A stretch of DNA of 63,959 nucleotides, the filler included, from Folioceros fuciformis (taxonomy: Eukaryota), in the NCBI GenBank assembly GCA_049999805.1. It is 13 parts of 13 records of this genome, joined end to end, with 100 filler letters (N's around TTAATTAATTAA, not from the genome) between each part and the next. Parts side by side here need not be neighbours in the genome. Positions count along the whole stretch, not along the records: positions 36,346 to 44,226 come from JBNGIO010005574.1; 12 more parts are not named here. One strand, given 5' to 3'. The notes under the pieces were generated by a model. The model worked only from the letters and a program-made list of their open reading frames with translations, had not been told where the DNA came from and did no database searches. A program made the position numbers and the translations under genes. Of this stretch, positions 5,474-59,797 are shown piece after piece. The stretch's first letter is position 1; every line of letters starts with the position of its first letter.

Positions 5474-6063
5474 TTAAGAGGTAGAAGGAGGGGTTTGGTC
5501 TTCCTCATCAAACATACGAGAAATTGAAAACAGCATGTGATCCAAAGGCTGAGGAATTATCATGCAACCATAAGGTGAATATGAGGATGAGAGATCATGC
5601 AACTTTTGTAGACAAAGTTGGGCTGTAGCAAAGTTATGAGACATTTGTGTGACTTTCTTTATTAAGATGCCAATTTTTTTGTGCAAAGAGATGAGTTCTT
5701 TCTTGTGATTAGATCTTTCTAGACGTGCATTGTCTTGCAGATTGTTGAGTCGAAGTCTAAGAGACTTGATGTTTGATGTGCAGGATTTGTGTGTAGGATC
5801 TGTATGCTGGAATGAGGGTGAAAAATTACAGTAATGTGTTGGGCGCATTGGGATAGTATGTTGTTGTTGACAGCAGGTATACTGACCACAACTGGTTTCA
5901 AGAGAGAATGGAGAACAGCGTTGCTAAAATCTGCTGTAATCTCTCCAGTAAGACATTTTGCAAGCAAGTCACTTGCGCATTCTCTCAAAACGCTCCCATT
6001 GGCTATATGCCTTCCAGAATTGCTTGCGGGCTCTAGTGTAGGCTTGTTTCTTGTTTGAACCAA
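5474..6063 (-). pseudogene. Extra ORF upstream of copia A gag (frameshifted pair 5719-6063 / 5474-5848), coiled-coil C-half
   Basis: Same strand as gag and directly 5' of it. Begins (L/M)VQTRNK. Heptad-like IKSLRLRLNNLQDNARLERSNHKKELISLHKKIGIL. Confidence 0.5.
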
Positions 6064-6089: not shown

Positions 6090-6652
6090 TCTGCGGCCGA
6101 AACACCTCCCTCTGAGGCTGGCTGGACTGGCTACAAAAAGTTAACAGTCCGTGCCAGGACGATGCCGTAAGTCTCAGGGTCAAAGAGTTTGTAGGCTTTG
6201 GTGATCTCACTATATCCCACAAAAATCAACTTCTTGGCTCTGTCTTCCAACTTGCGCCGCTTTTGCTCAAGGATATGGGCAAAAGTAGCAGATCCAAATA
6301 CTCGCAGGTGAAGAACACTTGGCTTCCGCTGCCAACGGACCTCGTATGGGGCACGCCCAGACAGTGAACTTGTGATAACCTAATTTAAAATATAAGTGGC
6401 GGCCACAATAGCCTCTACTCAGAAGCCTTGCTGGAGGCTAGACCACAATAGCACATATAGGTCTGAGTTGGAAGGCTGGTAGAAGCAACAAGAGTCACGA
6501 GAGAATAGCACTTCCAGGGAACCGTATCTCATAAGGTGACTTAGGGAGATAAGATTCTTTGTCATCTTCGGCACATAGAGCATAGGCTCTAAAGTAAGTG
6601 TTGATCCATCAGATAAGGGGAACTTGCAAATCCCTTGCCCAAGTATTGGCAA
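6090..6652 (-). pseudogene. pol: Ty1/copia protease fragment fused by deletion to the integrase C-terminus
   Basis: LYVPKMTKNLISLSHL (protease), followed by AIVAATYILN and HLRVFGS...KLEDRAKKLIFVGYSEITKAYKL read from the minus strand. Confidence 0.8.
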
Positions 6653-22450: not shown

Positions 22451-25400
22451 CTGAGGGGAATCCTGGCCAGGGAGGATCTGCAGGCTGGTAGACGGAAGCG
22501 GCAGGCCAGACAGGGCCAGATCCCGAAGCCACGCAGGCTGGCCAGGCTGGCTGGGGCTAGTCTAGCCCAACGCAGGAAGGCCGAGCAGGTGGGTGGCCTA
22601 AGCGAATTGGCCAGGAGGGCGGTGTATGGCCTTGCTGGTAGGCGGATCCAGCCAGGCAGCCAGGTAGCCACCTGGCCGGGGAAGGCAGGCCTAGCTGCCA
22701 AGACAGATAGATAGAGGGCCGGCCTGGCTGCAGCTAGAGAGGCAAGGCTAGACAGCCTGAGGCAGCGCTGGATCGTAGCTAGACGGGCCTTGGGCTAATT
22801 TAGGCCGTGCTGGCCAGCAAGGGAGGCTCAGGCCGGCGACAGGCTAGCAGGGAAGCTGGCTATCGGGGCGGCTGGCCGCAGCTAATGGCTGGTGGCGAGC
22901 TGGGTACGGCCTTACAGGCTAGATCCAGCTGGCTGACTAGCTAGGTGGATCCGGGTAGGCGACCTGGCTGACTAGTGGACGGGCTAAGGGAATTTAGGCA
23001 ACGGCCTGGCCAGATCTCAGGCAGCAGCAGGTAGGCGGCCTGGCTGGAGGTGGCAGCTGAGAAGCCTAGACCGGCAGGCGGCCAGCCAGAGCGAGATCCA
23101 GGCCAGGCCCGGTTGCTGGAGATCAGGTAGGCTGGATGGCGATGGCAGCTGCAGGCAGGCATCAGACAGCCGGTAGTGGCTAGCAGGGCCGGTGGCTGGG
23201 GGATTCAACGGGCTAACGGGCCGGATTCGGAGGCCAGCAACGGCCCAGCTGCTTGTGGCTGGTCTGGGTGGATCCGGGTAGCCAGGTCGACTGGTTGGAC
23301 CCTGGCCAGACTGCGACCTGGCTGAATCGAGGCATGGCAGGCCAAGAAGGCTGGCGGCTGGTAGGCAGGGGGGTGGCCGACATGCGAGCAAGAGAATGGA
23401 AGGTAGGCAGGCCAGGGTGGATACAAGCAGCCGGGAGGGATCTGAGGTAGGCGAGCGGGTGCCAGCGTCAAGACCGAGGCGAATCAGGTGGACCAGATCC
23501 AAGCGGTTGGTTGGCTGCCAGGCAAGCAGGCAAGCGACCTGGCCTAATCGCCAAGGTAGGCGAACCCAGGTAGGCAGGTGGCTTGGCCTGATCGCCAAGG
23601 CAAGCAAGCGGGTTGGTTGGATCGTCATGGCAAGGTTGGATCTCGAAGTCAGGCAGCCGCCTAGCGGCTGGCTGGGGAGAGTCCGCATTGGGGGGAAGGA
23701 CGGATGGTTAGCAGGGTGGCCGACCCGAGCAGGTAGTTCGGCTGACGGCTTGGCGGGCTAGCAGGCCGGATCGAAACCGTTGCAAGGGATGCGCAACCTG
23801 GTAGCGGGCTGGATCACGGCCAGGCCAACCCGGCAGGGAGCATGGCACTACCTCGCGACATGAATAGGCTGATGAAATCCAGCAGGTAGGAGGTCGGCTA
23901 GCAGGCGGGTTACCCGCGAAATCCAGGCAAGTAGGTGGAGCCAAGACGTGCAGAATCGTGCTTAACGGAATTGAGGCAGGCAGGAGGCAAGCTGGGGTGG
24001 TCGAGTCCTCCAAGCGGATCAGAGGTGGGCGCTAGCGTCCAGGCGCCCGACGCTCCAAGTAAGTAGGTGCCAGGGTCAGTCTAGCAGGTCGGTGGGTGGT
24101 AGAGACTCCAAGTTCTGCCTGGATCGCATTCAGCAGGTTGGACCATGGTGGTTGGTTGGCCGGGTCTGGCCAGGTCCCTAGCAAGTGAGGCACAGGCGGG
24201 CCTCGGGCTGATCCAAGCGAAGATGGCTGGCAGGTGAGTCTGTGGTGGATCAAGGAAGGTGGATTGGCCAAATGAGAAAGGGCCAGGCACGAGATCCAAG
24301 CAGGTGGCCCTTTCTCAAGGGGCTGAGCCAAGAGGGGCAACTGGGAGGAGGTTCGTGGCTCTAGGGAAAGAGGCATCAATGTTGCTATGGGCCTTTGGAG
24401 CAGTTAACCTGGGTAGCACCGAATGCCTCGTGAACCATGTATGGCTACTTTTGCAACTAGATTGGGACCAGAGCAACGCACCTCCCCTACGGGCAGCCAG
24501 AGGACATACCTAACATTTGGCTGTCCGCCGACGAGCAGCGTTGCTCGCAGGCGGAAGATCTGAATACAGACGTACTACTCACAGGTGGAGAGCCAGATGG
24601 TGGGAACAAGGCTGCTCCTCAAGGGCATCAGACGGGTAACTGGGCTGGACCATGGGGCCTCCTTGGCCAGCAGGATGGGGAGTAGACGATAAGAGGAAGG
24701 TGGAGGCTTGAAGGGTTGCAGGATGATTCGAGGGAAAGGGAGGATCTGAGGGAGGAGAGAAGAGTGTTAAGGAGCACTCCGGATTCTTGCTAGTTGTGAG
24801 AGGCTGACAATGTTGGATAGAGGGCAACCAGCGGTGTCCAAGGGGGTAACGGGCAATTAGGTGCAGGTTAGAGTTAGGCTTGGGTTAAGTTGCGATCAGA
24901 ACTAGGCCTGACTATATTTAGGTCTGTTTAGTTTTAGGTCAGACCTAGGCTAGGTTTAGGTTAGGCCTGGATTATGTCTAGGTCACAGGCCTAGATTAGG
25001 TCTAGGTCAGGCCTATATTAGGTCTAGGTCAGGCCTAGATTAGGTCTAGGTCAGGCCTAGATTAGGTCTAGGTCATGCCTAGATTAGGTCTAGGTCAGGC
25101 CTAGATTAGGCCTAGGTTAGGCCAAGATTAGGTTTAGGTCAGACCTAGGTTAGGTTTAGGTCAGAACCGGATGTAGGATGGTTTAAGTCAGAGAGAGAGG
25201 TGGTTAGGTAGTTGACTCAAGTTAACCCTAGTAGACAGAGATGAGGGCTAGGCAGTACAAGAGGGGAGGCCTGCCATTGAGAGGAGGGTGGTCTACGGTG
25301 TGATGTCCCCGGACCTTGTGTGCGGAACTCCTGGCTTAGGGCGCTGAGCCGGTTGAGACCGAACCGAGGTCCTAATTCCCCTTGCCACTAGGGGAACGTG

Positions 25401-25884: not shown

Positions 25885-26190
25885 NNNNNNNNNNNNNNNN
25901 NNNNNNNNNNNNNNNNNNNNNNNNNNNNTTAATTAATTAANNNNNNNNNNNNNNNNNNNNNNNNNNNNNNNNNNNNNNNNNNNNAATATCTTGATCAGGA
26001 AAACGTCACTGATGCTGTTATGTAGGTAGGGGAGAAGGAAAAAAAAAATGGACACAAGACCCAGGAGTCACAAATCTATGGCTAGTGAATTTTGTGTCAA
26101 ATGTTTCCGTCTTTCTACATACATGTGCAGCACCAGACTAGGTTACTTACAACTATAGAAATATGCAATATCTATGCATCAAAGCTCCAA

Positions 26191-26397
26191 GCTCTGATAC
26201 CATGTTGATAAACATGAGAGCAATACTCTTGTAGTCAAGATGTATATTAAACATTAAATTAATTAAGCTCTAAAGAAGTCTTACATACTTACTCTCCTGA
26301 AGAGTCATGACTGTTCAGCTGACCTAAACTTATACAACTATCGGCTAACAGCTGTGACGTTTATCTTAACTAAACCCTAACGGGGTTCTATTCAACA
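26191..26397 (-). mobile_element. Copia 5' LTR (26203-26397, 195 bp) and tRNA-iMet PBS (26191-26202), nested in another copia
   Basis: Plus strand GCTCTGATACCA followed by TGTTGA...TTCAACA. Confidence 0.88.
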
Positions 26398-28117
26398 ATA
26401 TCTGGGAGCATGAGATTGTGGATGTAAGAGCTTATAGGCCTTCATATGCTCCATGTACCCAACTAGGATATATTGTTCGCTCCTTGCGTCAAACTTTGAG
26501 CGTGAGACTGCAGGGATGTATACATAGGTGGGTGAGCCGAATACCCGGATATGACCAAGAGATGGTTTGAAACCTGTCCAGAGTGTGTAAGGAATCTATC
26601 CACCGATGGCAGCTGAAGGTAATCTGTTGATAATGTAGTTTGCTGTATCAACAGCTTCAGCCCAGTAATGTTTGCTCAAACCGGCTTGAATCAGCATAGT
26701 TCTCGCATAGTACTGAAGAACTTGGTGTTTGTTCTCCGCAACTCCGTTCATTGATGAGGAGTATGGGACTGTAACTTGCTTGACGATACCACGCTGAGTA
26801 CAAAAATCTGTGAAGGCATGTGATGTGAGTTCTCCAGCACCATCAGTACGTAGTTGCTTCAGTGCTCTCTCAGTTTGTCTTTCAGCCATAGTGAGATACT
26901 CCTGAAAGATGTGTAACGCTTGACTTTTCTTTTGCAGGAAGTATGTGAAGGTCATTCTGGAGTGATCGTCCACAAACGGCATGAAGTATATCGACCCGCC
27001 GAAGGAAGGTGTTGATATGGGACCACAAAGGTCCGTGTGAACAAGTTCTAGTAAGGCCAACGCTCTGTAAGAAGAGATCTTGGCGTAGCAAGCTTGCTTG
27101 ATTTTTCCTTGCGCGCATGCTTGACAGAACTAGATGTCTATCAAAGTTGGCATTTTATGTCGATATAAATCCTTGTTTGCCAGTCCAGTCAGTCGTTGAT
27201 TGCTGACGTGGCCAAGTCGAGCGTGCCACAACATGGAGGAATCAACAGAACCTTGCCTAGCTTGTGCGGTGACAAGAGCTGCAGGTGAATAAGCTTGACT
27301 TGTAATACTCGTTTGCAAACACAAGTCGAGCTTGTAGAGATCCTCCAGTAGTGTACCCGATAGGACTAAGCTTTGATCAAGTTTGTTTAATATTGCACAG
27401 CTGTCCTTAGAGAAGTTCACTGTGAAATTGCCCGTGTGAAGAAGCTTCGACACGCTAATCAAATTCTTGATCATAGAGGGAACATAAAGAGCTTGTTTAA
27501 TGTTAAACAGTCTTCCGGCCGAGTCTGTAAGGGTTACAGAACCTTCACCCACAATCTTGCACACAGACTTGTTTCCGACCACCAGATCGTTACTTATGTC
27601 ATACTTGTGCAGGGTTCTGAAGAGTTTCTCACAGTTACAAACGTGATGAGTTGCTCCGCTGTCGAGGAACCACGCCCCAGTCTCACACAATGTGGAGTCA
27701 GCAGATAGGATATTCACGAGGACAGTAGGTTTAGACGTCGATGCCATATGCGTTTCCGGTTGTTGGAATTTGCGAGGCTCACCGGCTAGTTTCTTCCTGC
27801 AGTCCTTTTCCCAGTGACCAGGTATGCGACACCAATTACAGGATCCTTTGGAGGACTTCCTGGGATTGGAGTTTGTGTTCTGACCTGTGGAGGCAGAGCC
27901 AGAGAATTTCTTCGCTTTCCTGAATTTGCCTTTGGAGGCAAACAGTGCCTTGGCTCCTGTAGCGTAGGAACCTGTTGGCGATTTCTTGTGTGCTTCTCTG
28001 TGCACCTCCTCAGCAAGAAGGCTTGTCGTGACGTCCGTGAGCGTCACTTCTTTGCCCATGCCTAGGGCTACGGCGGCCTTACTTTGGTTGATCAGACCAA
28101 ACTGTGATGTGGCGAAG
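26398..28117 (-). pseudogene. gag-pol: Ty1/copia gag C-part - protease - integrase
   Basis: CNWCRIPGHWEKDC, WFLDSGATHH, LWHARLGH, VHTDLCGP, LRTDGAGE, NGVAE, YWAEAV. Contains stops and frameshifts. Confidence 0.93.
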
Positions 28118-36345: not shown

Positions 36346-37095
36346 TGCTGGGCCAGTTAAAATTCAAGCAGTTCAAAAGTTTCGCACGTCGCTTGGTATC
36401 ATTGTGGAGTCGGAGGCTGTGTGTGATACAGGTATTGCGACAGCTCCTGTTTGGGGCCCAATGGCTTTTTCATCCTTCTCCGACGTCTCAACTCCACATA
36501 TTCGTCACCAAATTCTATTTCATGATGTCCCTATCAGCTTATCAATGGAGGAATTCAAGGAAGAAGTTCTCGAAGACAATTACATCACCTTCGAGGATGA
36601 GCCTCGGTGGCTCCTCCGGGATCTTTCTACCAAGCGGCATTCTTCTGTTTTGGTATCCCTTCCCGACGATGATTCTGCATCTGCAATTCTTCGGCGTGGC
36701 CTTGCTTTGCAGGAGCACTTGCTGCAGGTGACACCTTTTGTACCCAATGCCCGCCCTACTCAATGCTTTCGGTGTCAACGTTTTGGACACACTTAGACCT
36801 TCTACAGGAGCGCGGAGCGATGCTTGAACTGTGGTGGGCCTCATCCAACTTCGGATTGTAAAGTGGCAACCTCTCTATGCTGCAACTGCCATGGATCTCA
36901 TCGGGCCACTTACCCTTCATGCCCTACTTGCCTCGAAGCTAACTCCAAGTTTTTCTCTCGACCAGGCCCCTCATGAGTTCCCTCAAGATCTTTCAACTTA
37001 AATGTCACCGATCCTGTGTCGTCATCTCTACTCTTCTGAATCTGCTTCTGTCGTCCTTTGACATTCTTTTCCTTCATGAGCCTTATGTCATTAAC
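36346..37095 (+). mobile_element. Non-LTR retrotransposon of Tad1/R1/I type: ORF1 C-half with three zinc knuckles (to 36976) and ORF2 endonuclease start (36973), cut by a copia insertion
   Basis: PRWL...KRHSSVLV...QCFRCQRFGHT*...CLNCGGPHPTSDC...CCNCHGSHRATYPSCP. ATGA stop/start overlap at 36973-36976. ORF2 begins MSSLKIFQLKCHRS...FDILFLHEPY. Confidence 0.8.
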
Positions 37096-37566
37096 TGTTA
37101 AACCCCTAGGGTTATTAGTAACCACGGCCACTAGTTACCTAGCTACCTAGATTAGGGTTATTTATATTATGAGGGGTTATGTAGTTAACTTTAGGATTAA
37201 GTATATAAACACAACTTATTGTCAAGTTTGCTGTCTCTCTCTAGCAATTTTGACATGGTGTCAGAGCTATCTGATATTTTTATTTTTAGTTGCATTGATT
37301 TTTCATGAAAGGAATCACTATTAAGAAGTACAGGATGCGACAGTGTGCATAATCTAATATGTCTATATAGTCTAATATGTCTATCATATATAGATTCTAT
37401 GCATTATCGTATCTATACTTCCCAATAGTTTCTCTCCTTCATCAACAATTGCAAATTCTATTCCCTTGCCACAGATGGGGAATTTCCAAGTTCTCTATTG
37501 GCACATGAAAACGTTTCCGCTGCACTGCTAAAAAGGGAGATATGCAAAATATATCTCAAGTGCAAA

Positions 37567-38130
37567 ATGCCTCGAAGAAATAGGACTCGGGAGCCTGGTG
37601 CACGAAGTTTCTTTAACTTTATCACTGACAGGTACGTAAGGGAAAGAGATCGCCAGAGGCGGCCAACACTTCTTCCCACAAATTTCCCAGTGACAAGAAA
37701 TTCCCGAGCCCAGTTTTCCAGGCGTCACAGGCCTCCAACCCCCCCGAATTACCTTGTAATTCAAGCGAGGTTCAGGGTACCGCAACAGGACATGCAACAC
37801 TCACACACAAATTGTGAACAATCACCTAGAAATAATCACGCAGGGGAAACACATCGTTTCCATCTGCAACCATCTAGGCATAATCACGCAGTGGAATCCT
37901 CACGGTTCCATTTGCTGAGTGAAATTGCCGATGAGCCTGTTGCAAACCTAGGAGACCTTCATGTTATGCTCTTCAGGCATACCACCAGAACACAAGTTCT
38001 CACAGGGCAGATTTTTCTTGAGATCAACGAGATCAAGCATCAATTGAATGCCCTGGTCACAAAATTAAATGAAGACTTTCACATCAGCGATGGCCCTGTG
38101 ATTGACGGCCATCGACACACCATCCTGTGA
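37567..38130 (+). CDS. Extra ORF between PBS and gag of copia B (187 aa, basic N-terminus, heptad C-terminus)
   Basis: Open frame from ATG 37567. Motif RYVRERDRQRR is shared with the ORF at 44833-45282. Confidence 0.65.
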   Translation: MPRRNRTREPGARSFFNFITDRYVRERDRQRRPTLLPTNFPVTRNSRAQFSRRHRPPTPPNYLVIQARFRVPQQDMQHSHTNCEQSPRNNHAGETHRFHLQPSRHNHAVESSRFHLLSEIADEPVANLGDLHVMLFRHTTRTQVLTGQIFLEINEIKHQLNALVTKLNEDFHISDGPVIDGHRHTIL

Positions 38131-38535
38131 TAGCTGCGGGCTCACCCCGATCCTTTGCTTGGCCAAGCAATCTTGCAAACAAGCAAGGGAGATACGAAAC
38201 GCCGTGAGCAGATTTTTCACGCATCTGTGATAGAGCAGGGACACACATACATCTGGTGAAAGGACGCGATTTGCAGAAACAGGCATCACCGGCAGCGAAA
38301 GGACGGGACTCTCGCTAACACACGGGCATCACGGCAGCGGGAGGACGCGATCGCAAGTGAAACCCCAGTATCCGTGAAAGGACAGGTTTCCCAAGCGGCA
38401 CCAACCTGCAGCCTCGCCTCCTAACCCCGTGCCGTCCGACGTCCTCGCAATCTGCAACCAGACCGCAGATACACATCCGGGATCTGCCACCACACACCAT
38501 CAGATACAATCTGAATCCAACTTTGCACCGAAAAC

Positions 38536-39447
38536 ATGGCTGAAAATTCTGGAGACGCAGGTTCTGATGCTAGTGACGATCTCGGGCTTTATGCCGGAGA
38601 TCCTGGGTCCGATGCAGGTGTGATCCTAGGTGCCGGCGCCTCAACCGGTGTAGGCGCTTCCACGGCTGCGGGTATGCCTTCCCTCCCAAGCTCACCGCCA
38701 CACGGAGCGCCCGGCACCTTCCCACCTGCAGCAAACCCTGGAGGACATCCAGGCAATGCCGTGAGCACATCAGGCTTTGGAAACGGCAACAATGGCCTGT
38801 TCAGCGGTTTCGGCACGTGATCATATTATACCTTCACCTCTGCTGGATCTGGAGCGGGCCTATCTGCTGCTCAAGGAACCGGTGCCTCGTCCTACCCCAG
38901 TTTCTCCACGTCCCGGTACTTCAACCCCCTACCATCCCTCGGAGCGGGATATGGGAATCCTTTGCCTGCACCAGGAGCTGGATTCGCCAATCCCCTGCCG
39001 GTATATGGAGTCGGGTCTGGAAATTCCGCGAGTGGGCAAGGAACATGGTTTGGACAGGTACCTCAGCCTGGGCAAGGGCTTCCACAGCCACCTCTGCCAG
39101 GCTCAGCACTCACACAGCAGACACATCAGGCCGCCCTTCTGCCACCCTTCCCTGCATATCAGCCAACCTACACAATAGAGTTTAAGGAACGTGACAGGTT
39201 CAATGGAACTAAATACCCCGTCTGGAGCGTCCGTATGCATGGAGCCCTTGATGCTCGGCATGTGTGGAGCGTCGAGAGCGGGCAGTTTCAACAACCTGCA
39301 GTTACTTCTCCGCAGCCTGACCAGGACAGATGGGAGAATGCTAACACTGTGGCTCGTGCCCTCATCATAAGTGGCTTGGACGAGGTGTTAGTGCCCGATG
39401 TGGCCTTCCTCACTAAGGCTGAAGACATATGGACACAACTGGCATAG
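38536..39447 (+). pseudogene. gag: Copia B gag N-part with a long Gly/Pro-rich leader; one in-frame stop; truncated
   Basis: ORFs 38536-38820 and 38962-39447 are in the same frame. FKERDRFNGTKYPVWSVRM motif. Confidence 0.85.
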
Positions 39448-39479
39448 ACGTACGACGTGAAGAACGTGCTTACCCTCTG

Positions 39480-42284
39480 TGCTATTCCTGGACATACCCC
39501 CTCAAGCGAAAATCAGACACTTTCTTGCTATTCAAAGAGTGGCTCACAATGATACAGAGACAGACTGGGACTCACCTCCGCTGCTTAAGATTAGATAACG
39601 GCACAGAGTTTGTGAATGCTGCTTTTGACGATTATCTTGCAGCTCAGGGTGCAGTCCGCCAGCTCAGTATCCCTTATACTCAGCAACAAAATGGGGTAGC
39701 CGAACACCGTAATCAAACTTTGCTCAGCATAACAAGGAGTATGTTGGCGTGGTCCGGGCTCAGCAAAGCCTACTGGGCAGAGGCAGTTGTCACTGCCACT
39801 TATATTCTTAATAGGCTTCTCACTTCAACAGTTCCTGACCAGACTCCTTTCGAGATGATTTGGAAGCGCAAGCCTAGTTTGCTTCATCTTCGAGTATTTG
39901 GCTCACCTGCCTATGCTTACATCCATGAAGAACAGCGCAGGAAGCTTGAGGATAGGGCTCGACCTCTCGTATTTGTTGGTTATGGTGAGGAGACCAAAGC
40001 TTATAAGCTTTATGACCCTCACTCCAGGTCTTCCATATTTGCCCGCAGTGTCACTTTTAAGGAATTGACAGCTCCTGCTTCCCCTGCGACTACTTCTTCA
40101 GCACCCTCTCCTCCGGACACGGCTGACTTTGATGAGACACCCTCCGAGTATCCTCAAGATGCTGCATATGAACCGCCACGTGCTCCTCGTTTTTGTCAAC
40201 CAGCTGGCAGTTCAGGGGGTGGAAATGCAGCAGCTCAGTCATCAGTACTTGTTCCTGTGCCCGCACCACCAACTCAGCTGTTGCCTACAGCACTACAGGA
40301 GACACCAGAGGATGACACAAATCAGGACGCTGAGCTTCCAATACCTGATGCTGAAGTGATGCATGAGCTCGAGGACGATACACTAGTTGATGAGACTGCA
40401 GCCGATTCACCTGTCATAGAGCCTGAAGTTGCTTCACTTGTTGACGAGGCTGAAGATGTTGCTGAGCCACTTACTGACGAGCTGGAACATGCTGCGGACT
40501 CAACTGTTGAGCCACCTGAGCTGGAGACTCCTGAGGAACCAGCTGCTGAACCTGCACCAATTGTTGAAGAGCGTAGGTATCCCAGCAGATCCCGTCCATC
40601 AAGGGAGAATTGGAGCACTAGGCCGTATGAACCCGAAGACTTCAGGATTCCTCGATCTGCTCGTCTTTGTGAGGCTTTCTCCACCATCACTCTTCATCCC
40701 GCAGAACCCCGCACATACCAAGAGGCTATTACTGGCCCTGACAAACATCACTGGGTTCCTTCCATTCAAGATGAATATAATTCTTTGATTAAGAATGGCA
40801 CATGGGAGCTATGTCCTTTACCTACCGGGAGAAGATCGGTTAGCTGCAAATGGGTGTTTAAGCACAAGCTGAATGCTCAGGGAGAAATAGCCCGCTATAA
40901 GTCGCGTTTAGTTGCTAGGGGCTTCTCTCAAGTCGCAGGTGTAGACTTTAATGAAACTTTCAGCCCTGTTGTGAAGACGCAGACCATCAGGATGGTGCTG
41001 GCTCTTGCAGCTGCGAGAGACTGGGATCTCGAGCAGATGGACGTTTCAACTACTTTCCTGTACGGCGAGCTTGAAGAAGATATATACATGGATCAACCTG
41101 AAGGATTTGTAGACCCTGAACATCCTGATTGGGTCTGCAAATTGAACAAAACTCTATATGGCTTGAAGCAAAGTGCCCGTGAATGGCACAAGTGTATCGA
41201 TAAATATCTCAAGTCGATTGGCTTCATCCAGAACCCAGCTGATTCGAACGTGTATATTTACTCCAAAGGAGGTCATCTGGTCATACTAGCTCTGTACGTG
41301 GATGACGTTATACTTGCTTCCAACAACAGAGAGCTCTTGGCCTCGGTGAAAGGTATGTTGCACAAGGAATATGATATGAAGGACATTGGACCACTTACCT
41401 TTGTCCTTGGTGTTCAGCTGTTGAGAGATAGAGACACTCGCACACTTATCTTGCACCAGACAAAGTATATTGGCGAGACTCTTCGACGCTTTAACTTGCA
41501 GGATGCTAAACCTGTGAGCACAACAGGAAGCGTTGGGGTTAAACTTTCTGCTCAACAGTGCCCACAAGATGATTTTGAGCGTGAAGCCATGAGTCAGGTC
41601 CCTTACCGGCATGCCGTGGGCTGCCTTAACTACATAGCATGCTGGACTAGGCCGGATATTCAGCACTCCGTAAGTGCTGTTTCTCAATACCTTGAGAATC
41701 CTGGTCCCGAGCATTGGATGGCAGTTAAAAGGATTCTCGGATATCTTAAAGGCACCTCCACCTTTGGTTTATGTTTTCAGGGTAGTGACCTAGCACTCAC
41801 TCTTGAGGGATATGCAGATGCATACTGGGCTACAGACTTGGATCAAAGGAAAAGCATTTCTGCATATTGTTTCCTGCTTTCTGGTGCAGTCGTCAACTGG
41901 AGCTCGAAGAAACAAACTTCGATAGCTCTTTCATCAACAGAAGCAGAATACAAGGCCCTAACAAACTCAGCCAAGGAGGCTGAATGAGAGCGCACTTTCC
42001 TAGCTGGTTTGGGTTTTCAATAGTCGATTCCCACAACCATCTTCTGCGACAATATGTCGACTATTGCCCTGGTTGGGAATCCCCGTTTCCATGCGCGCAC
42101 CAAACATATTGAGATTCAGCATCACTTTGTTAGACACTCTGTGGAGCGCAAGGTGATCAAAATTGAACATATATCGACGGAGCTAAACACAGCCGACGTG
42201 CTTACAAAGAGCTTACCGACGAGCAAGCATGTTTTTCATATGGAGGCACTGGGCCTGGTAGAATACTCTTCCTATTTGCCTTGA
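39480..42284 (+). pseudogene. pol: Copia B pol: integrase core, RT, RNase H
   Basis: LDNGTEF, QQNGVAE, CKWVFK, KSRLVARGF, QMDV, LYGLKQ, LYVDD, SSTEAEY, HARTKHI. Stops at 41985 and 42021. Confidence 0.95.
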
Positions 42285-43199
42285 TTGCTGCAGGTGGCTG
42301 TTCCAGGTGCTGGGCGGATGAAGCTCCTCTGCTTATCTAATCGTCTAGCACCTCGCTGTGTCCTACTTCGGCAATGGGACCTTGGCGGCTTTCTCCAGCT
42401 GATCTTTCAGCTCCTCCGGGATGCCGGCTCGCCTCTTCACCGGTCTCACTGCGCCTGCCAATGACAGTTTTTGCTTCCCAGTCTGCCACCTCAATTCGCT
42501 GCTCTGTCGCATAGCATAACCCGCTTTCTTCATCACGCGCTGTTGGTGCTCAGCTCAGATCAGCACGAAGGCTGCTATCGCCAGGGTCCACAGCTTCACC
42601 GCCAGCCACCCTTAGTCTTGGCTTGTAGGCTAACCAGCGTTCCGTGGTTAAGGGGGTGTGTTAAACCCCTAGGGTTATTAGTAACCACAGCCACTAGCTA
42701 CCTAGATTAGGGTTATTTATATTATGAGGGGTTATGTAGTTAACTTTAGGGTTAAGTATATAAACACAACTCTCTTTGTAAATTTATTATCATTATTATT
42801 ATTGTCAAGTTTGCTGTCTCTCTCTAGCAGTTTTGACACGAGGGGAGCAAGTAGGTGGGAGAAGTAAGGGGAGCAAGCAGCTAGGAGAAGCAAGGGCAGC
42901 AAGCAGCTGGGAGAAGCAAGGGCAGCAAGCAGCTGGAGCTAATGAGCTCTATTCGTGGCAAAGGAGGCAAGGCCTTGTCCATTACTTCTTCCCATGCAGA
43001 GTAGCAAGGCCTGTCATATAACTAAAGGGCTACCAAAATTAGAGTTGGCTTTTTGCTTTCATCGCCCTCTACATGCTAAAGCCTACTTTAGCCTACAGAA
43101 CTATTTATTGCTACGCTTGATTGCCTATTACAAATAGATTAATTGAACTCAGCCACACAACATATTTTATGTTCATCCTTATCCTCATCGCTACAATTC

Positions 43200-43461
43200 C
43201 CTATTGATAGTGAACAATAAGCAAAGTCTTCTTAAGCCTGAAGTCTACTTTTGGGTGGAGAAGAAAGAGAGAATCTATGTCATTTATTTATTTGAGAAAA
43301 TAAGATGGAAAAACCATCTATCTAAAGAGGGCCTATTGATAGTGAACAATAAACAAAGTCTTCTTAAGCTTGAAGTCTACTTATGGGTGGAGAAGAGAGA
43401 GAGAATCTATGTAATTTATTTATTTGAGAAAACAAGATGAAAAAATCATCTATCTAAAGAA
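43200..43461. repeat. Tandem duplication of ~132 bp
   Basis: CCTATTGATAGTGAACAATAA...CATCTATCTAAAGA occurs twice (43200 and 43332). Confidence 0.9.
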
Positions 43462-43821
43462 GAAGATAAATCATGATAAGAACATTAGGGACTAATGTCT
43501 CAAGCCTAATGATTACCAATAGCACTAAAATATCATGCCATTTAAAAGTATTTTTAAAACTTGCATATTTTCACATAGTATTTACAAATCGATCCGAACT
43601 CACACGGTACAAAGGGAAAGAATACCCAAGTGATACAATGTGGCTGCCAGAATGCGGATAAGTGTGGGATAAAAATGCTTTGATCGGTATTGGTGGAAGG
43701 AGGATGAAACCGGGAGGTTGAAATGTGAGAAACCCTGGCAAAGGCTTAGGAGCTGGGGGTGAAGTGCGGGCACCAGAGGGCGGCGTAGGACGATCGCTGC
43801 GGCCAGGCCGCTGCAGCCAAG

Positions 43822-44226
43822 ATGCAGTGCGCGCAGCGGTACCCGGGGCTAGAGGCCCTGCAGGCCGCCCCTGCACTGCCTGCGCCAGCTCGCAGGTTGG
43901 CTGTAAAAGTAGCCCTGAGAAGCGCAGGCCAAAGCAGTCGCAAGAGCAGGAAAAATGGCGTTCGCCTCAGCATGGAAGTCGGTGCAGGGGAGGAACACCG
44001 GCAGGGCCCTCTGGGCACCTCCCCAAGCGTCCTGCTCAAGCTGCCGCTCTCCTGGGCCAGGCAGAGCAGCTCCTACCGGGCAGCTTTGCTGGCCGGTGTG
44101 CAGAAAGCCCTAATGGTGGGGGCAGGAGCAGGAGCGGCATTCCTGGTCTCAGACGGAGGAGGAGGGAGCTGGAGTGGCAATGGGGGAGGTGGAGGTGGTG
44201 GAGGGGATGGGAATTGGTTCGGGAGG
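43822..44226 (+). CDS. TOC75: N-terminus of a plastid precursor with a polyglycine stretch, probably TOC75(-III); cut by the contig end
   Basis: Basic transit-peptide-like region, then hydrophobic LLAGVQKALMVGAGAGAAFLV, then GGGGSWSGNGGGGGGGGDGNWFGR. This is the layout of the Toc75 bipartite transit peptide. RETICULATA-like proteins are an alternative. Confidence 0.55.
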
Positions 44227-44326: not shown

Positions 44327-45745
44327 GGCCACCGTGTTAAGGTTGTTCCATTTGTCTTTCTCATCCTGGGTAGCTGATGCAGGTGGTGCCTGAAGTGTTC
44401 CGCTTGCCATAGGCCAGAGATGCCGTGCCTCCAGCGCTGACTTCATCCTCACACGCCATATCTCGTACTTCGTCCCGTTGAAGCACCATCGCTCCTTAAA
44501 ATCCACAGCATATGCCGGTGGAAGAGGAGCTGGTGGTGCAGGGAGCGGAAGAGGAGGTGGAGGCGGTGGAGGTGGAGGCGGCGGTAGTGCATTAGACATT
44601 TCACAAAGTTATTCACACGCTTCTGTAGAGGAGCACTAGATCTTGCATCCTTGCAGTGAGTTGAAGCGACGTGCAGGAGGCTGACGACGGTTGGCTCCTT
44701 CTGGTGCCAGCTGAAGTGGATAGCCAACTCACACCGTTTCGCATGTGCAGACGCGCTGTTAGCTTACAACGCGCCAATCCAGATCAGGAGTGCCAGCTTG
44801 GTGGGCTTAGCGCGCCTGTTCGCCGGATCCTCTCACAACGGTTCATATCTTTGTACACCCGTGGAGCTCATGCGATCTTGCTGTCGGATCTCTCCGATCA
44901 GCAGCACGCGCTCGAGAAGCGATGCCAGCCGTGCTTGCTGAATTGACAAATCGTCAATTTTTGCTTGCACGATGTCCAAATCTCGGAGCCGGAGCAGAAC
45001 GCAATCTCTCCCAGGTAAATTTCGTGTTGTTTTGTCATAGAATTGCCTTGAATCACTCGCTCTGTAATGGAGTTGTGAATCAATCCTGCCAAGTTCCCTG
45101 ATGCTGTCAATTGTCGCAGGTGAATGCAATTCTTGTTGAACACCGGCTCTGACGTGGGGACATTGTTGTGAGACGTTGCCCTGCTGTCTCCTGCGGTTTC
45201 GCTCCCTCACGAAGCGAGCCATGTTCCTTGGTACTTGGTACTTGGGTTGTGGTACAGGCTGGGCAGGGCGGCGCCTCGACATCCTCACTTCAGCATAGTT
45301 TGTATCTCGACAGGCTAGAGCAGCGGAATTTCGTGATTTTCTAGTCCAATGCAAGTAGCTCTTTGCATTTTTTTTTTTATTTTAGTTCAGACTAAAAAGT
45401 GTGATGCGGGCGGAGGGGTCTGCAACTAGACACATGATTAGACATGCACTCTATAGTGAATGCCTAGTGATGTGTTTAGCTGTGTATCCCATCACTAGCA
45501 CTCACAATTGAACGAGCTCTGATACCATGTTTGGGGATCGTTCGATAAGAATACAAAACTTGGACAACAAACTTGCCAAATGAACGAACGATTAATTGAT
45601 GATAAGTTTCTCCTTATATACAAAATTGTAAAGTCATGTCCTTTCGTAATTAGGTTAAACTAAGTCACTTTGATATACATAGCCCTAATCTAACTGGCGT
45701 ATGTTTATATAACGTGTAACCCTAACGGCACGGTTACTCTCAACA
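44327..45745 (-). mobile_element. 5' part of copia element C: LTR 45528-45745, PBS 45516-45527, extra ORF, gag start at 44599
   Basis: GCTCTGATACCA next to TGTTTG...TCAACA. Gag begins MSNALPPPP...FKERWCFNGTKYEIWRVRM. Confidence 0.9.
44833..45282 (-). CDS. Extra ORF between PBS and gag of copia C (149 aa)
   Basis: MSRRR...RFVRERNRRRQ...LRDLDIVQAKIDDLSIQQARLASLLERV. The frame is intact. Confidence 0.65.
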   Translation of the reverse strand: MSRRRPAQPVPQPKYQVPRNMARFVRERNRRRQQGNVSQQCPHVRAGVQQELHSPATIDSIRELGRIDSQLHYRASDSRQFYDKTTRNLPGRDCVLLRLRDLDIVQAKIDDLSIQQARLASLLERVLLIGEIRQQDRMSSTGVQRYEPL

Positions 45746-52225: not shown

Positions 52226-52671
52226 TGCAGGTGGTCACTACTATAGTTTAGAGAGCTACAAAGAGAGCTTCACATTTCCTCATCATCATGCAGGAAATAC
52301 TGGGCGCAAGGAGAAACCTTTTCTACACTAGCATGTTTGTCAGGATGACAAGTAGCAGTTTGTGGGGAAAGTTTGTGATGAAGACAACTCAGCATGTGTT
52401 GATGGCATGATTCTTTGGCGATAGTCTTTATCGAACTGAAGATCTCTTGATTGCATTGTTGTGAACCTTCATTGGAGACAGAAGAAAGAGGACCTGCTTG
52501 TAGATTTGGGATATGATCAAGAGCGAGTTCTTTTGCTTTCACTTGACTTAAACTAAAGATAGTAAGCAAGTNNNNNNNNNNNNNNNNNNNNNNNNNNNNN
52601 NNNNNNNNNNNNNNNTTAATTAATTAANNNNNNNNNNNNNNNNNNNNNNNNNNNNNNNNNNNNNNNNNNNN

Positions 52672-54058
52672 AGTCTGTATGGAAGTCTTGAACTGCTTGT
52701 AGGCAGGTGTTAACCCGCACAAGCAAACTTCGACCTTGTCATCATCTTCCACACTGACACCAATGGACGCAAGGGATTCCACTATCCCTTTGATCTTTAA
52801 CGCGTACTCATTGATTGATAAGTTCTTCTTCATAACTGTGTTGAAGTCATTCTTCAACTGCAGTTTTCTCGCCTTCGTGTTAGTCTCATAGAGTTTTACC
52901 AACTCATCCCATGCTTCTTTGGGCGACTCTGCATCCTGTATGTGCCCAATCATGGTGTCATGAATGCTGATTGACAGCCAATACATGACCTTCCGAGATC
53001 CTTGACTCCAATCCTTCAGCGCCTTAATCTGCTCCGCTGTTGCATTCCGTTCAAGTACTACAGGGGGTTTTTCATGCTCCCCCTCAATGTAGTCCCAATA
53101 ACCCTTTCCCATAAGAAAGTTTGTAAAACGAAACTTCCAGGCATGGAAGTTGTTTTTGTCCAGCTTCTCCTGTACGATCTGGTTAATACTGTCACTGGCC
53201 ATTCTTGCCACCACTCAAGGTTGACACTCAATCCTTTCTTGAGTACTCACACCTGATAAATGTCTGAAAGAACCAGACTGCTTCTGACTGGAGTTTTACT
53301 CACAATACCTTAAGTCTCTTCTTCCTAAGAGCAATCTGGTGCGGAATCACGCTGCCTTGCGTGAACCAGATTGTCTCATGCTCCGTGTCCTTACAGACTC
53401 TTGACTGTCTGCCCACAAAGCTCCCGTGAGATTTCCTGTCAATTCCTTCCCTGCTGCCAAGCTAGGGTTAGCACACTTTCTTGCAGCTGCTGAGGCTATT
53501 GCAGCTGTTGCCTCCACTTGTCAGCCCTTCCACAGAGCTCTGGGGATCAACAGCTAGTCCAGTAAGCTGACAGGGCCTTGTCGCCCTTCTCCTCACTTCC
53601 TGCACACACCGATATGAGAGTTACCTGCCGGGACGCTTGCTGCCGATCTCCCTCCAAGCTGCTCCAACTTCTCGTAGCTGCTCTAGCTTCTGGTGTGCAC
53701 TCTTGCTGCCTCTTGCAGCACCTCCTACGCCGATCTTGCACCGCCTGCACCGGGCTCTGATACCATGTCAATAGGATCGACTCCAATCTACGTGCAAGTG
53801 TAGGAGAGGAGAGGAGAGAAGAGAGGGTGGTATTGGTGATCACAACCATGAAAACAATACACATCACCACTGTCTTACTATGGAGGTCCGAGGTCTCCAT
53901 TTAAGTAGTACATTTAGGGCTACACAACTTCCATGTTCAATATGGGATAATCTACACTATCCTAAGTTCACTAATAACTAGAACTAGTTTAGTATGAACC
54001 CAACTGGGATAACTAACACCACATGAGTTTAGCTCATATAGAGCTCGATAACTCAACA
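52672..54058 (-). mobile_element. gag: 5' part of copia element E (different lineage): LTR 53766-54058, PBS 53754-53765, gag from ~53202
   Basis: GCTCTGATACCA next to TGTCAA...CTCAACA. Gag motif KLDKNNFHAWKFRFTNFLMGKGYWDYIEG. Confidence 0.92.
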
Positions 54059-58329: not shown

Positions 58330-59797
58330 CAATATTTTCCCCCACAAGTATCCTCAAGAAGCTGCATATGGACCGCGTCCTTCCTCTCGTTTTGATCAAC
58401 ACGCTACCGGTTCAGGGGGTGAAAATGCAGCTCAGTCAGCTCAGTCATGAGCCCAGTGCCAATGCCTGTACATGCACCACATCCGCACCTGGACAGGATA
58501 TGGATGATATGAACTAGGGTGATGTTTTTGATGCTGCGGTGGTAAACTCTCCACTCACTGTGGAACATGAGCTCGACAACAGTCCACATGCAGATACACC
58601 GTTTGCACTTTTTGAAACTGAAGATGCTGCTGTGCAACCTCCCGACGAGCTGGAACCTGCTGAGCACTTAGTTGTAGAACCCAATGAGCTAGAGGCTGCT
58701 GAGGAATCAGCTCCTGAACCTGAACCAATTGTTGAAGGGCACAAGTATCCCAGCAGATCTTGTCCATCACGGGAAAATCGGAACACAAGGCCCTATGAAT
58801 CTGAGGATTTTAGTATTCCTCGATCTGCTCGGCTTTGTGAAGTTCTCTCCATCAGTAGCATCCACCAGCAGAACCTCGTACATATTAGGAGGCGATAACT
58901 GGTCAGGATAAACATCACTGGCTTCCTTCAATTCAAGATGAATATAATTTGCTGATTAAGAATGGGACATGGGAGCTTTGTCCTTTACCTTCTAGGAGGA
59001 AGATGGTTAGCTTCAAGTGGGTATTCAAACACAAGTTGAATGCTCAGGGAGAAATAGCACGATACAAGTCACGTTTGGTTGCTCGGGGTTTCTTGAAGTT
59101 GCAGGTGTAGACTTCAACGAGATGTTTAGCCCTGTTGTCAAGACACAGTCAATCAGAATGATGTTAGCCCTAGCAACTACCCGAGACTAGGATCTTGAAC
59201 AAATGGATGTTTCAACCACTTTTCTGTATGCAGAGCTTGAAGAAGACATATACATGGATCGGCCTAAGGGTTTCGTGGATCCTGAACATCCAGATTTGGT
59301 TTGCAGGCTCAAGAAAACTCTACACGACTTGAAGCAAAGTGCTCGTGAATGGTACAATGTATAGACAAGTACCTCAAGTCGATAGGCTTCATCCAGAACT
59401 CAGGTGATGCCAAAGTATACATATATTCCAAAGGAGGTTACTTGGTCATCCTAGCACTTTACGTTGATGATGCTATACTGGCATCCAACAACAGAGAGCT
59501 ACTAGATTGGGTGAAGGGTATGTTGCACAAGTAGTACGACATGAAAGACATTGGACAACTTACCTTTATCCTTGGCATTCAGCTGCTGAGAGGTAGACCC
59601 AACAAAGCACTTGTTCTACACCAGACCAAGTACATTGACGAAACTCTTCAACGCTTCAATCTACAGAATGCTAAGCCTGTAAGCACACCAGGAAGCGTTG
59701 GGGTTAAACTCTCTGCTCAACAGAGTCCACAAGACGACTATGAATGTGAAGCTATGAGCCACATTCCTTACCGACACGCTATGGGTTGTCTCAACTG
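58330..59797 (+). pseudogene. pol: Copia INT-RT linker and RT, a decayed relative of element B
   Basis: Co-linear similarity to 40140-41630. FKWVFKHKLNAQGEIARYKSRLVARG and LYVDD. Confidence 0.92.

Follow-up and report, generated by a model that had tools for sequence, protein, structure and literature searches.

The window, by which we mean the whole stretch of 63,959 bases that was analysed, is made up of 13 separate contigs of 1.2 to 13.5 kb each, with linkers of the form N44-TTAATTAATTAA-N44 between them. Since it was joined in this way, the five retrotransposons discussed here (elements A to E) sit on different contigs. Element B, which is 5.7 kb in size, lies within the piece 36346-44226 and has its LTR, primer binding site (PBS), ORF, spacer and gag in this order on one strand. 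Its features, together with those inside the ORF, are as follows.

37096-37255, plus strand: 5' LTR, 160 bp, TG..CA, which pairs with 42659-42838
37256-37267, plus strand: PBS, TGGTGTCAGAGC, complementary to the 3' end of tRNA-iMet
37268-37566, plus strand: leader, 299 nt, AT-rich (33% GC), with 8 upstream ATGs
37567-38130, plus strand: 5' extra ORF, 187 codons plus stop
37567-37665, plus strand: arginine-rich N-terminal region of the ORF (aa 1-33, 11 Arg), including RYVRERDRQRR, which is position-matched in element C
37826-37921, plus strand: internal duplication of two diverged 48-nt units, RNNHAGETHRFHLQPS and RHNHAVESSRFHLLSE, identical at 32/48 nt and absent from the TRF report
37897-38064, plus strand: conserved C-terminal block of the ORF (aa 111-166); two paralogous contigs retain the stretches 37866-38016 and 37906-38056
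38131-38535, plus strand: spacer, 405 nt, non-coding, 56% GC, with 5 stops in the frame of the ORF and gag
38536-39447, plus strand: gag remnant, a low-complexity N-terminal extension followed by a DUF4219/Retrotran_gag_2 core from 39199
39423-42284, plus strand: pol remnant, with the C-part of the integrase core, an SH3-like domain, RVT_2 and an RNase H tail
42646-42658, plus strand: polypurine tract (PPT), GGTTAAGGGGGTG, read from the sequence and adjoining the 3' LTR
42659-42838, plus strand: 3' LTR, 180 bp, which pairs with the 5' LTR

Element B belongs to Ty1/copia: a partial rve domain and SH3_retrovirus precede RVT_2 (E = 6.3e-73), gag contains Retrotran_gag_2 and DUF4219, and the terminal features of this superfamily (LTR pair, tRNA-iMet PBS and PPT) are all present. 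Over 152 aligned positions the two LTRs differ by 3 substitutions, and there are two indels besides, of 8 and 28 nt; the flanks TTAAC and CGAGG give no target-site duplication. The PBS TGGTGTCAGAGC has one mismatch to the iMet form TGGTATCAGAGC, which is present at 26191, 45516 and 53754. A search with pol found one relative at 77% identity and others at no more than 52% among the 120 matches listed; the named relatives among the matches listed come from angiosperms, a charophyte alga and a sea anemone.

The sequence-only reading that preceded this work had described the gag-pol of element B as carrying stops and a deletion, and this is what we see. There are three in-frame stops, one in gag (at 38818, behind the ATG at 38536) and two in pol (at 41985 and 42021). 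Gag is cut by an internal deletion and the frame enters in the middle of the integrase core, at about 39423-39447, with gag-C, protease and integrase-N missing (the Pfam rve match starts only at profile position 37). The Pol_BBD and gag_pre-integrs domains were not found by Pfam in element B; element A has both. Between pol and the 3' LTR (42285-42658) there is no ORF of at least 60 codons on the plus strand, and the other long frames that were scanned in the window are all either derived from retrotransposons or without a Pfam match. The spacer contains three copies of GAAAGGAC, at 38258, 38297 and 38376, and this sequence is found nowhere else in the window. With regard to the leader, another copy skips 37259-37497 in the contig comparison, and the 8 ATGs that precede the ORF in the present copy would be awkward for scanning ribosomes.

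The ORF at 37567-38130 (+) starts with MPRR and is closed by the double stop TGA TAG; both RYVRERDRQRR and IFLEINEIKHQLNALVTKL occur in it. A 187-codon frame between the tRNA-iMet PBS (37256) and gag (38536) had been reported from the sequence alone, and we found both its coordinates and its strings to be exact. Measured from stop to stop the frame covers 37429-38130, that is 233 codons. TRF reported no tandem array within 37567-38130, and the ORF is not a tandem-repeat artefact.

To judge its length we made 2000 dinucleotide-preserving shuffles of the 1268-nt stretch from PBS to gag and searched all six frames. An ATG-ORF of at least 187 codons occurred in 14 of the 2000 shuffles, and a stop-to-stop frame of at least 233 codons in 3 of them. 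The length of the ORF exceeds chance. The contrast drawn earlier between an intact ORF and a gag-pol with stops, on the other hand, is uninformative on selection in this copy: at the rate of 3 stops per about 1258 gag-pol codons, a stretch of 187 codons would be expected to contain 0.45 stops.

The predicted product has 187 aa, a mass of about 22 kDa, a pI of 11.2 and 25 Arg residues, and it can be divided into three parts. Residues 1-60 have a net charge of about +12, and with 11 Arg in the first 33 residues the N-terminus is strongly basic, in line with the basic motif proposed earlier. Residues 61-120 are rich in His, Gln and Asn and hold a diverged 16-residue duplication. Residues 121-187 are slightly acidic, and here I152, I155, L159, L162 and L166 follow each other in 3-4-3-4 spacing; the heptad-like C-terminal segment of the sequence-only reading is thus present in the form of a short hydrophobic pattern. 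This amphipathic segment (aa 148-166) closes the conserved C-terminal block. AlphaFold2 without an alignment was uninformative (mean pLDDT 38.4, pTM 0.20) and gave helices at 16-26 and 156-171 with low confidence, the latter with a pLDDT below 50. The product is probably disordered over most of its length.

Next, we asked how the ORF changes between copies. Two DNA runs of one sample contain the element B stretch (shares 0.74 and 0.70), and the contigs of four runs were compared with 37096-39500 at 80% likeness. Some of these contigs are identical to the window. A diverged paralogous contig, 1562 nt long in DNA run X1 and recurring as the same sequence, with a length of 1074 nt, in run X4, which belongs to another study, matches 37482-37615, 37866-38016 and 38520-38620. 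Our codon tally is based on the listed differences alone (40/445 overall, 20/28 of the contig's main block).

Within the ORF there are 24 listed differences, 18 of them at codon position 3, four at position 2 and two at position 1, and the excess at the third position is significant (P = 3.6e-5 against 1/3). In the frame of the ORF 16 changed codons are synonymous and 7 non-synonymous, while the same differences give ratios of 1:21 and 2:19 in the two other frames. The non-synonymous changes are mostly conservative (R>K, S>A, I>V, D>G, V>A, H>Q, V>A). A check of dN/dS, which had been proposed along with the sequence-only reading, gave a Nei-Gojobori omega of 0.08 for codons 111-144 and of 0.09 for the first 16 codons (37567-37615), both from one pairwise comparison. 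The 85 nt upstream of the ATG (37482-37566) are kept in paralogous contigs without codon-phase bias; a hand count shows their 6 listed differences spread 2/2/2 over the phases, hence the codon periodicity begins at the ATG of the ORF. The middle of the ORF has diverged, with 178 letters in place of 250, which amounts to 72 nt or 24 codons fewer.

Another paralogous contig retains 37497-37580 and 37906-38056; as it has 6 of the listed differences in common with the first one, it adds no independent evidence of selection. In summary, conserved blocks of the ORF are seen in two further contig variants besides the window copy, and judged from its substitutions the ORF looks as if it had been under purifying selection between paralogous copies. 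Note that this signal concerns the family and not the present insertion; the window copy itself is defective.

We then compared element B with the other elements of the window. The features that matter for elements C, A and D are the following.

44327-44599, minus strand: start of gag in element C (DUF4219, E = 4.3e-7), truncated where the contig ends
44833-45282, minus strand: 5' ORF of element C, 149 aa, pI 10.9, 24 Arg, which starts with MSRR and carries RFVRERNRRR
45516-45745, minus strand: PBS (45516-45527) and LTR (45528-45745) of element C
5474-5848, minus strand: upstream ORF of element A, 124 aa, a positional analogue only; 26/2000 shuffles reach 124 codons
52270-52569, minus strand: upstream open frame of element D, 99 codons, which runs off the contig, a positional analogue only; 82/2000 shuffles are as long

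That element C has an ORF in the same position, with MSRR and RFVRERNRRR, had been noticed earlier and is confirmed here (45282-44833, minus strand). An ORF of at least 149 codons occurred in 61/2000 shuffles for this element. A distance of 683 nt lies between its ORF and gag, which do not share a frame. The ORFs of B and C are alike in their M-x-R-R start, in the motif R[YF]VRER[DN]R at the same offset, in a pI of about 11 and in their 24-25 Arg residues. We then allowed the offset to shift by up to 5 positions and took the 10-residue window with the most identities, a test that was devised after this motif had already been seen; 7/10 residues were identical, a value that none of 2000 shuffles attained. 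With such a position-matched motif the ORF of C is a probable homologue of that of B. The overall similarity of the two is marginal (BLASTP E = 27; Smith-Waterman z = 2.2, with 38/1000 shuffles as good). It is plausible from these comparisons that they are fast-evolving homologues.

The upstream frames of elements A and D exceed the length expected by chance (26/2000 and 82/2000 shuffles). They have no similarity to those of B or C, or to each other, and a PBS was not found for element A. In element E (PBS at 53754, gag ATG at 53202, both on the minus strand) there is no comparable ORF, in agreement with what had been stated for this element. The gag start that the sequence-only reading considered common to A-D and unusual does occur at exactly four positions of the window (5194-, 39199+, 44482- and 52073-), yet it is not unusual, since it corresponds to the Pfam family DUF4219 (PF13961; E = 4.3e-4 for A, 1.6e-4 for B, 4.3e-7 for C and 1.3e-6 for D), an N-terminal motif that is ordinary for copia Gag and that element E matches weakly. 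The claim that A-D form one lineage could not be upheld. While the gag of B is 53% identical to that of C over 62 residues, it shares 34-38% with D and 28% with A; Gags as distant as this (28-38% identity among A, B and D) do not define a lineage, and with ORFs in A and D dissimilar to those in B and C, the four elements are not established as one.

Searches for homologues outside the window did not find any. None of the four upstream ORFs (A-D) has a Pfam match above the cut-off, the best for B being an unrelated family with E = 0.13, and the plant mobile domain (PMD, pfam10536) was not found by Pfam in the ORF of B. For this ORF, phmmer returned 0 matches among 1.84 billion representative proteins, and there were also 0 matches among the PDB sequences. 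A word-indexed protein search offered 43 candidates for the ORF of B and 47 for that of C, none of which scored, and the ESM Atlas gave no usable match for either. Scans with the back-translated ORF of B produced 305 pattern matches in metagenome contigs, 167 in genome contigs and 24 in viral contigs, with 0 confirmed in each case, and a scan of metagenome contigs with the gag alignment of B and C produced 88 matches, again with 0 confirmed. Within the window tblastn of the ORF found only itself, the next matches having E >= 0.31. As these searches elsewhere were blank, the conservation of the ORF is seen within this genome only.

Taken at the level of the family, we think that 37567-38130 is probably a genuine accessory gene (a 5' forward extra ORF, eORF or aORF) of a Ty1/copia family, a reading for which the codon pattern argues. 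The sequence-only reading had proposed a lineage-specific accessory protein. Of this proposal, a real and lineage-restricted coding sequence stands by virtue of the codon pattern, while its extension to a group made of A-D does not. Four other explanations have to be weighed.

The ORF could be a fragment of a host gene that was transduced by the element and is passively carried. The plant-wide survey of Neumann et al. 2019 (PMC6317226) concludes that many extra ORFs are acquisitions of diverse origin, and transduced ORFs are known from a review that is concerned mainly with 3' ORFs (PMC7264820). By the account of this review, such ORFs occur in one or a few copies, whereas the present one has at least three diverged variants, and element C, with a gag of only 53% identity, probably carries it as well. 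Moreover, no cellular homologue turned up among the 1.84 billion representative proteins or in the other searches, and the substitution pattern is that of constraint after the copies had diverged. We consider passive transduction unlikely. Note that an ancient capture which the element has since domesticated is conceivable; it would coincide with the accessory-gene explanation.

Another possibility is a chance open frame in a non-coding leader, from which no protein is made. The lack of a homologue or domain for the ORF of B, the lack of a confident fold, the 8 upstream ATGs and an intactness that is unremarkable at 0.45 expected stops are all compatible with this, and 14/2000 shuffles still attain 187 codons. 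A chance frame would, on the other hand, be at odds with 18 of 24 differences at the third position, with a synonymous to non-synonymous ratio of 16:7 against 1:21 and 2:19 in the other frames and with an omega of about 0.08. Furthermore, the length change of the ORF in the paralogous contig is a multiple of three, and element C has the position-matched motif. Taken together, this makes a chance frame distinctly unlikely.

The ORF might also be the N-terminal part of Gag, to which splicing or read-through would connect it in intact copies, or from which mutation has split it here. The gag ATG at 38536 does share its frame with the ORF of B, the distance from ORF to gag in the paralogous contig differs by 177 nt, or 59 codons, and the gag of B already has a long low-complexity N-terminal extension. 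However, the 405-nt spacer holds 5 stops, including the TGA TAG, against 3 in about 1258 gag-pol codons, and the frame of gag is not that of the ORF in element C. In the four runs, none of which is on record as RNA, there is no joint that removes the spacer; the only skips seen are replacements, and these are found in DNA runs as well. We regard this explanation as very unlikely.

Leaders of retroelements usually contain cis-acting signals. That the conservation reflects such signals (a promoter, or a dimerisation or packaging signal) and not a protein is extremely unlikely: the 85 nt upstream of the ATG are indeed as conserved as the first 49 nt of the ORF, but signals of this kind would not give an excess at third codon positions that starts at the ATG, the fold of the spacer RNA is unremarkable (z = -1.71, with 6/100 shuffles equally good, so that no structured element is claimed), and Rfam had 0 matches on 36346-44226. 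For the 5' block, a cis signal and coding can both be present at once.

Returning to the accessory gene, the ORF would be the first cistron of the sense RNA of the element, separate from gag. Its arginine-rich arm may bind nucleic acid, bring the protein into the nucleus, or both. The middle of the protein would vary in length between copies, as in the paralogous contig, and the conserved C-terminal block of about 55 residues, which would end in a short amphipathic helix, may contact a partner, be it the protein itself, Gag or a host factor. Tentatively, the protein may serve the cycle of the element, for example in the handling of its RNA (export, translation or packaging), and a role against host silencing or in targeting seems improbable. 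The gag that lies behind the 187-codon ORF could be reached by reinitiation, an internal start, splicing or a second promoter.

A wider reading is that B and C, and perhaps also A and D, are a bicistronic copia group in which an old and very fast-evolving 5' gene has been kept by selection while the families diverged to Gags of only about 50% identity, which we find possible and rather doubtful at the same time. The small arginine-rich protein of such a group might act on the RNA of the element or on host silencing, a suggestion that we hold with the same reserve.

How does this ORF compare with known extra ORFs? The survey mentioned above, in which extra ORFs have at least 250 codons, counts them in 582 Ty1/copia and 3372 Ty3/gypsy elements, in 45 and 314 similarity groups, respectively, most of them without domains (PMC6317226). 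Like the eORF-5'F class, whose products are heterogeneous, the ORF of B runs on the sense strand within the 5' portion of the internal region and encodes no conserved domain; in this copy, stops part it from the polyprotein. It differs in length, with 187 codons (233 from stop to stop) against the minimum of 250, which is a cut-off of the survey and not a biological criterion. As to position, the ORFs of both B and C lie between the 5' LTR with the PBS and gag, on the strand of gag-pol, just as in this class. The only extra ORF that the main text of the survey names as typical of a copia lineage is the 3' ORF of SIRE. This env-like eORF-3'F is likewise an extra, fast-evolving ORF in Ty1/copia, but it lies downstream of pol, whereas the ORF of B lies upstream of gag (PMC6317226). 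Full-text searches of the literature brought up no copia lineage with a 5' ORF as its defining trait; the supplementary tables of PMC6317226 may list some.

Extra ORFs at the 5' end are also known from Tekay chromoviruses (PMC11728184), with ORF0 of the rice Retrosat-2 as a further example (PMC3485330). The 5' aORF protein of the sunflower Tekay 13-2 is described as having an NLS, three helices and long disorder, and it is kept in 500/523 copies (PMC11728184). The ORF of B shares with the Tekay ORFs the sense orientation between 5' LTR and gag, a basic NLS-like stretch and few helices in an otherwise predicted disorder, and further the conservation inside a family that goes with dissimilarity between families and to other proteins. 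On the other hand, Tekay elements are gypsy and not copia, their product has about 400 aa against 187, and there is no sequence similarity, nor is any expected. The background that was given with the sequence-only reading, namely 5' extra ORFs in Ogre/Tat and a 3' one in SIRE, is incomplete, as it omits both the Tekay 5' ORFs and the 582 Ty1/copia elements of the survey. Among the Ogre extra ORFs, 57% have the plant mobile domain, pfam10536 (PMC6317226). The ORF1 of Ogre/Tat is an extra sense ORF upstream of gag too, in far larger gypsy elements that use other tRNA primers, and the ORF of B, unlike many of them, has no Pfam match.

Potentially, one could also think of retroviral regulators of the Rev/Rex type, small proteins in which an arginine-rich arm at the N-terminus precedes a hydrophobic segment rich in leucine. 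Their genes are located 3' of pol and are expressed from spliced mRNAs. The likeness to the ORF of B, which has an arginine-rich N-terminus and neither a Pfam nor a PDB match, is one of layout only. In summary, the ORF of B is an orphan member of the extra ORFs that have already been catalogued, notable for its shortness and its clean selection pattern.

Since element B is defective and few copies stand behind the evidence, the practical weight of this finding is modest. Extra ORFs are common in LTR retrotransposons, but for almost none of them is a function known, and surveys question whether many are functional at all. A short copia 5' ORF with a pattern of selection at the protein level supports the view that some of these orphan ORFs are real genes, and ORFs of this kind are missed by length cut-offs of 250 codons. 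As the product is small and has two recognisable parts, the arginine-rich arm and the C-terminal block, tests of its localisation and of RNA binding would be simple. If B and C, perhaps with A and D, should indeed be a bicistronic group, a selected 5' accessory gene would for the first time define a copia lineage, and the group would offer a short, tractable protein for probing the role of 5' accessory ORFs.

Between its primer binding site (PBS) and the start of the extra 5' ORF (37567-38130), element B, the defective copia element on the plus strand, carries an AT-rich leader, and a part of this leader (37259-37497) is absent from a paralogous contig of the DNA run X1, which skips it. In this variant the gap between the PBS and the ORF start is only about 70 nt. 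The leader-skipping paralogue is also more abundant than the window's own contigs, with a word depth in run X1 of 37 vs approximately 10-15.

The spacer between the ORF and gag contains a degenerate repeat with a unit of about 40 nt (38258-38383). We find three copies of GAAAGGAC in the entire window, all of them inside this spacer (at 38258, 38297 and 38376), and they alternate with two copies of GGCATCAC (at 38282 and 38325). The repeat could be a promoter, an enhancer or a protein-binding site.

Further features were found on either side of element B and elsewhere in the window:

36461-36796, plus strand: open frame ending in ...CFRCQRFGHT, which stops about 300 nt short of the element B 5' LTR
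43200-43460: tandem pair of repeat units, each some 130 nt long, with 94% identity between them, 360 nt downstream of the element B 3' LTR
58347-59796, plus strand: reverse transcriptase (RT) fragment, its DNA about 80% identical to the element B RT (40147-41631)
6092-6454, minus strand: integrase fragment, 53% identical to the element B integrase, directly upstream of the leader of element A (another copia element)
25985-28117, minus strand: copia gag-PR-integrase frame that ends in an LTR
24964-25205: tandem array of AGGTCTAGGTCAGGCCTAGATT-like units with an 11/22-nt period, in about 16 register-shifted copies

The Cys/His-rich sequence continues beyond the first of these frames, for which there was no match in Pfam; possibly, it is a remnant of another retroelement into which element B has been inserted. 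The RT fragment shares its contig with element E, is cut off by the contig end, and has neither gag nor a 5' ORF upstream. Since the integrase fragment directly adjoins the leader of element A, the 5' end of this element is probably truncated or nested, which would account for the absent PBS. Immediately behind the LTR that ends the gag-PR-integrase frame lies a perfect iMet PBS (26191-26202), and this arrangement may represent two tandem elements with a common LTR or, alternatively, an LTR recombinant.

Note that the window consists of 13 contigs chained via N44-TTAATTAATTAA-N44 linkers (12 linker sites, 13499-62797). Distances and neighbourhoods that span the linkers are artificial, and ORFs listed across a linker (e.g. 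52624-53214) are partly an artefact.

When run X3 was compared with positions 37096-39500, 246 of the 260 differing places were C>T or G>A changes (138 and 108, respectively). Such an excess is what bisulfite conversion of a library from the same sample produces, and the data of this run could reveal the methylation state of element B.
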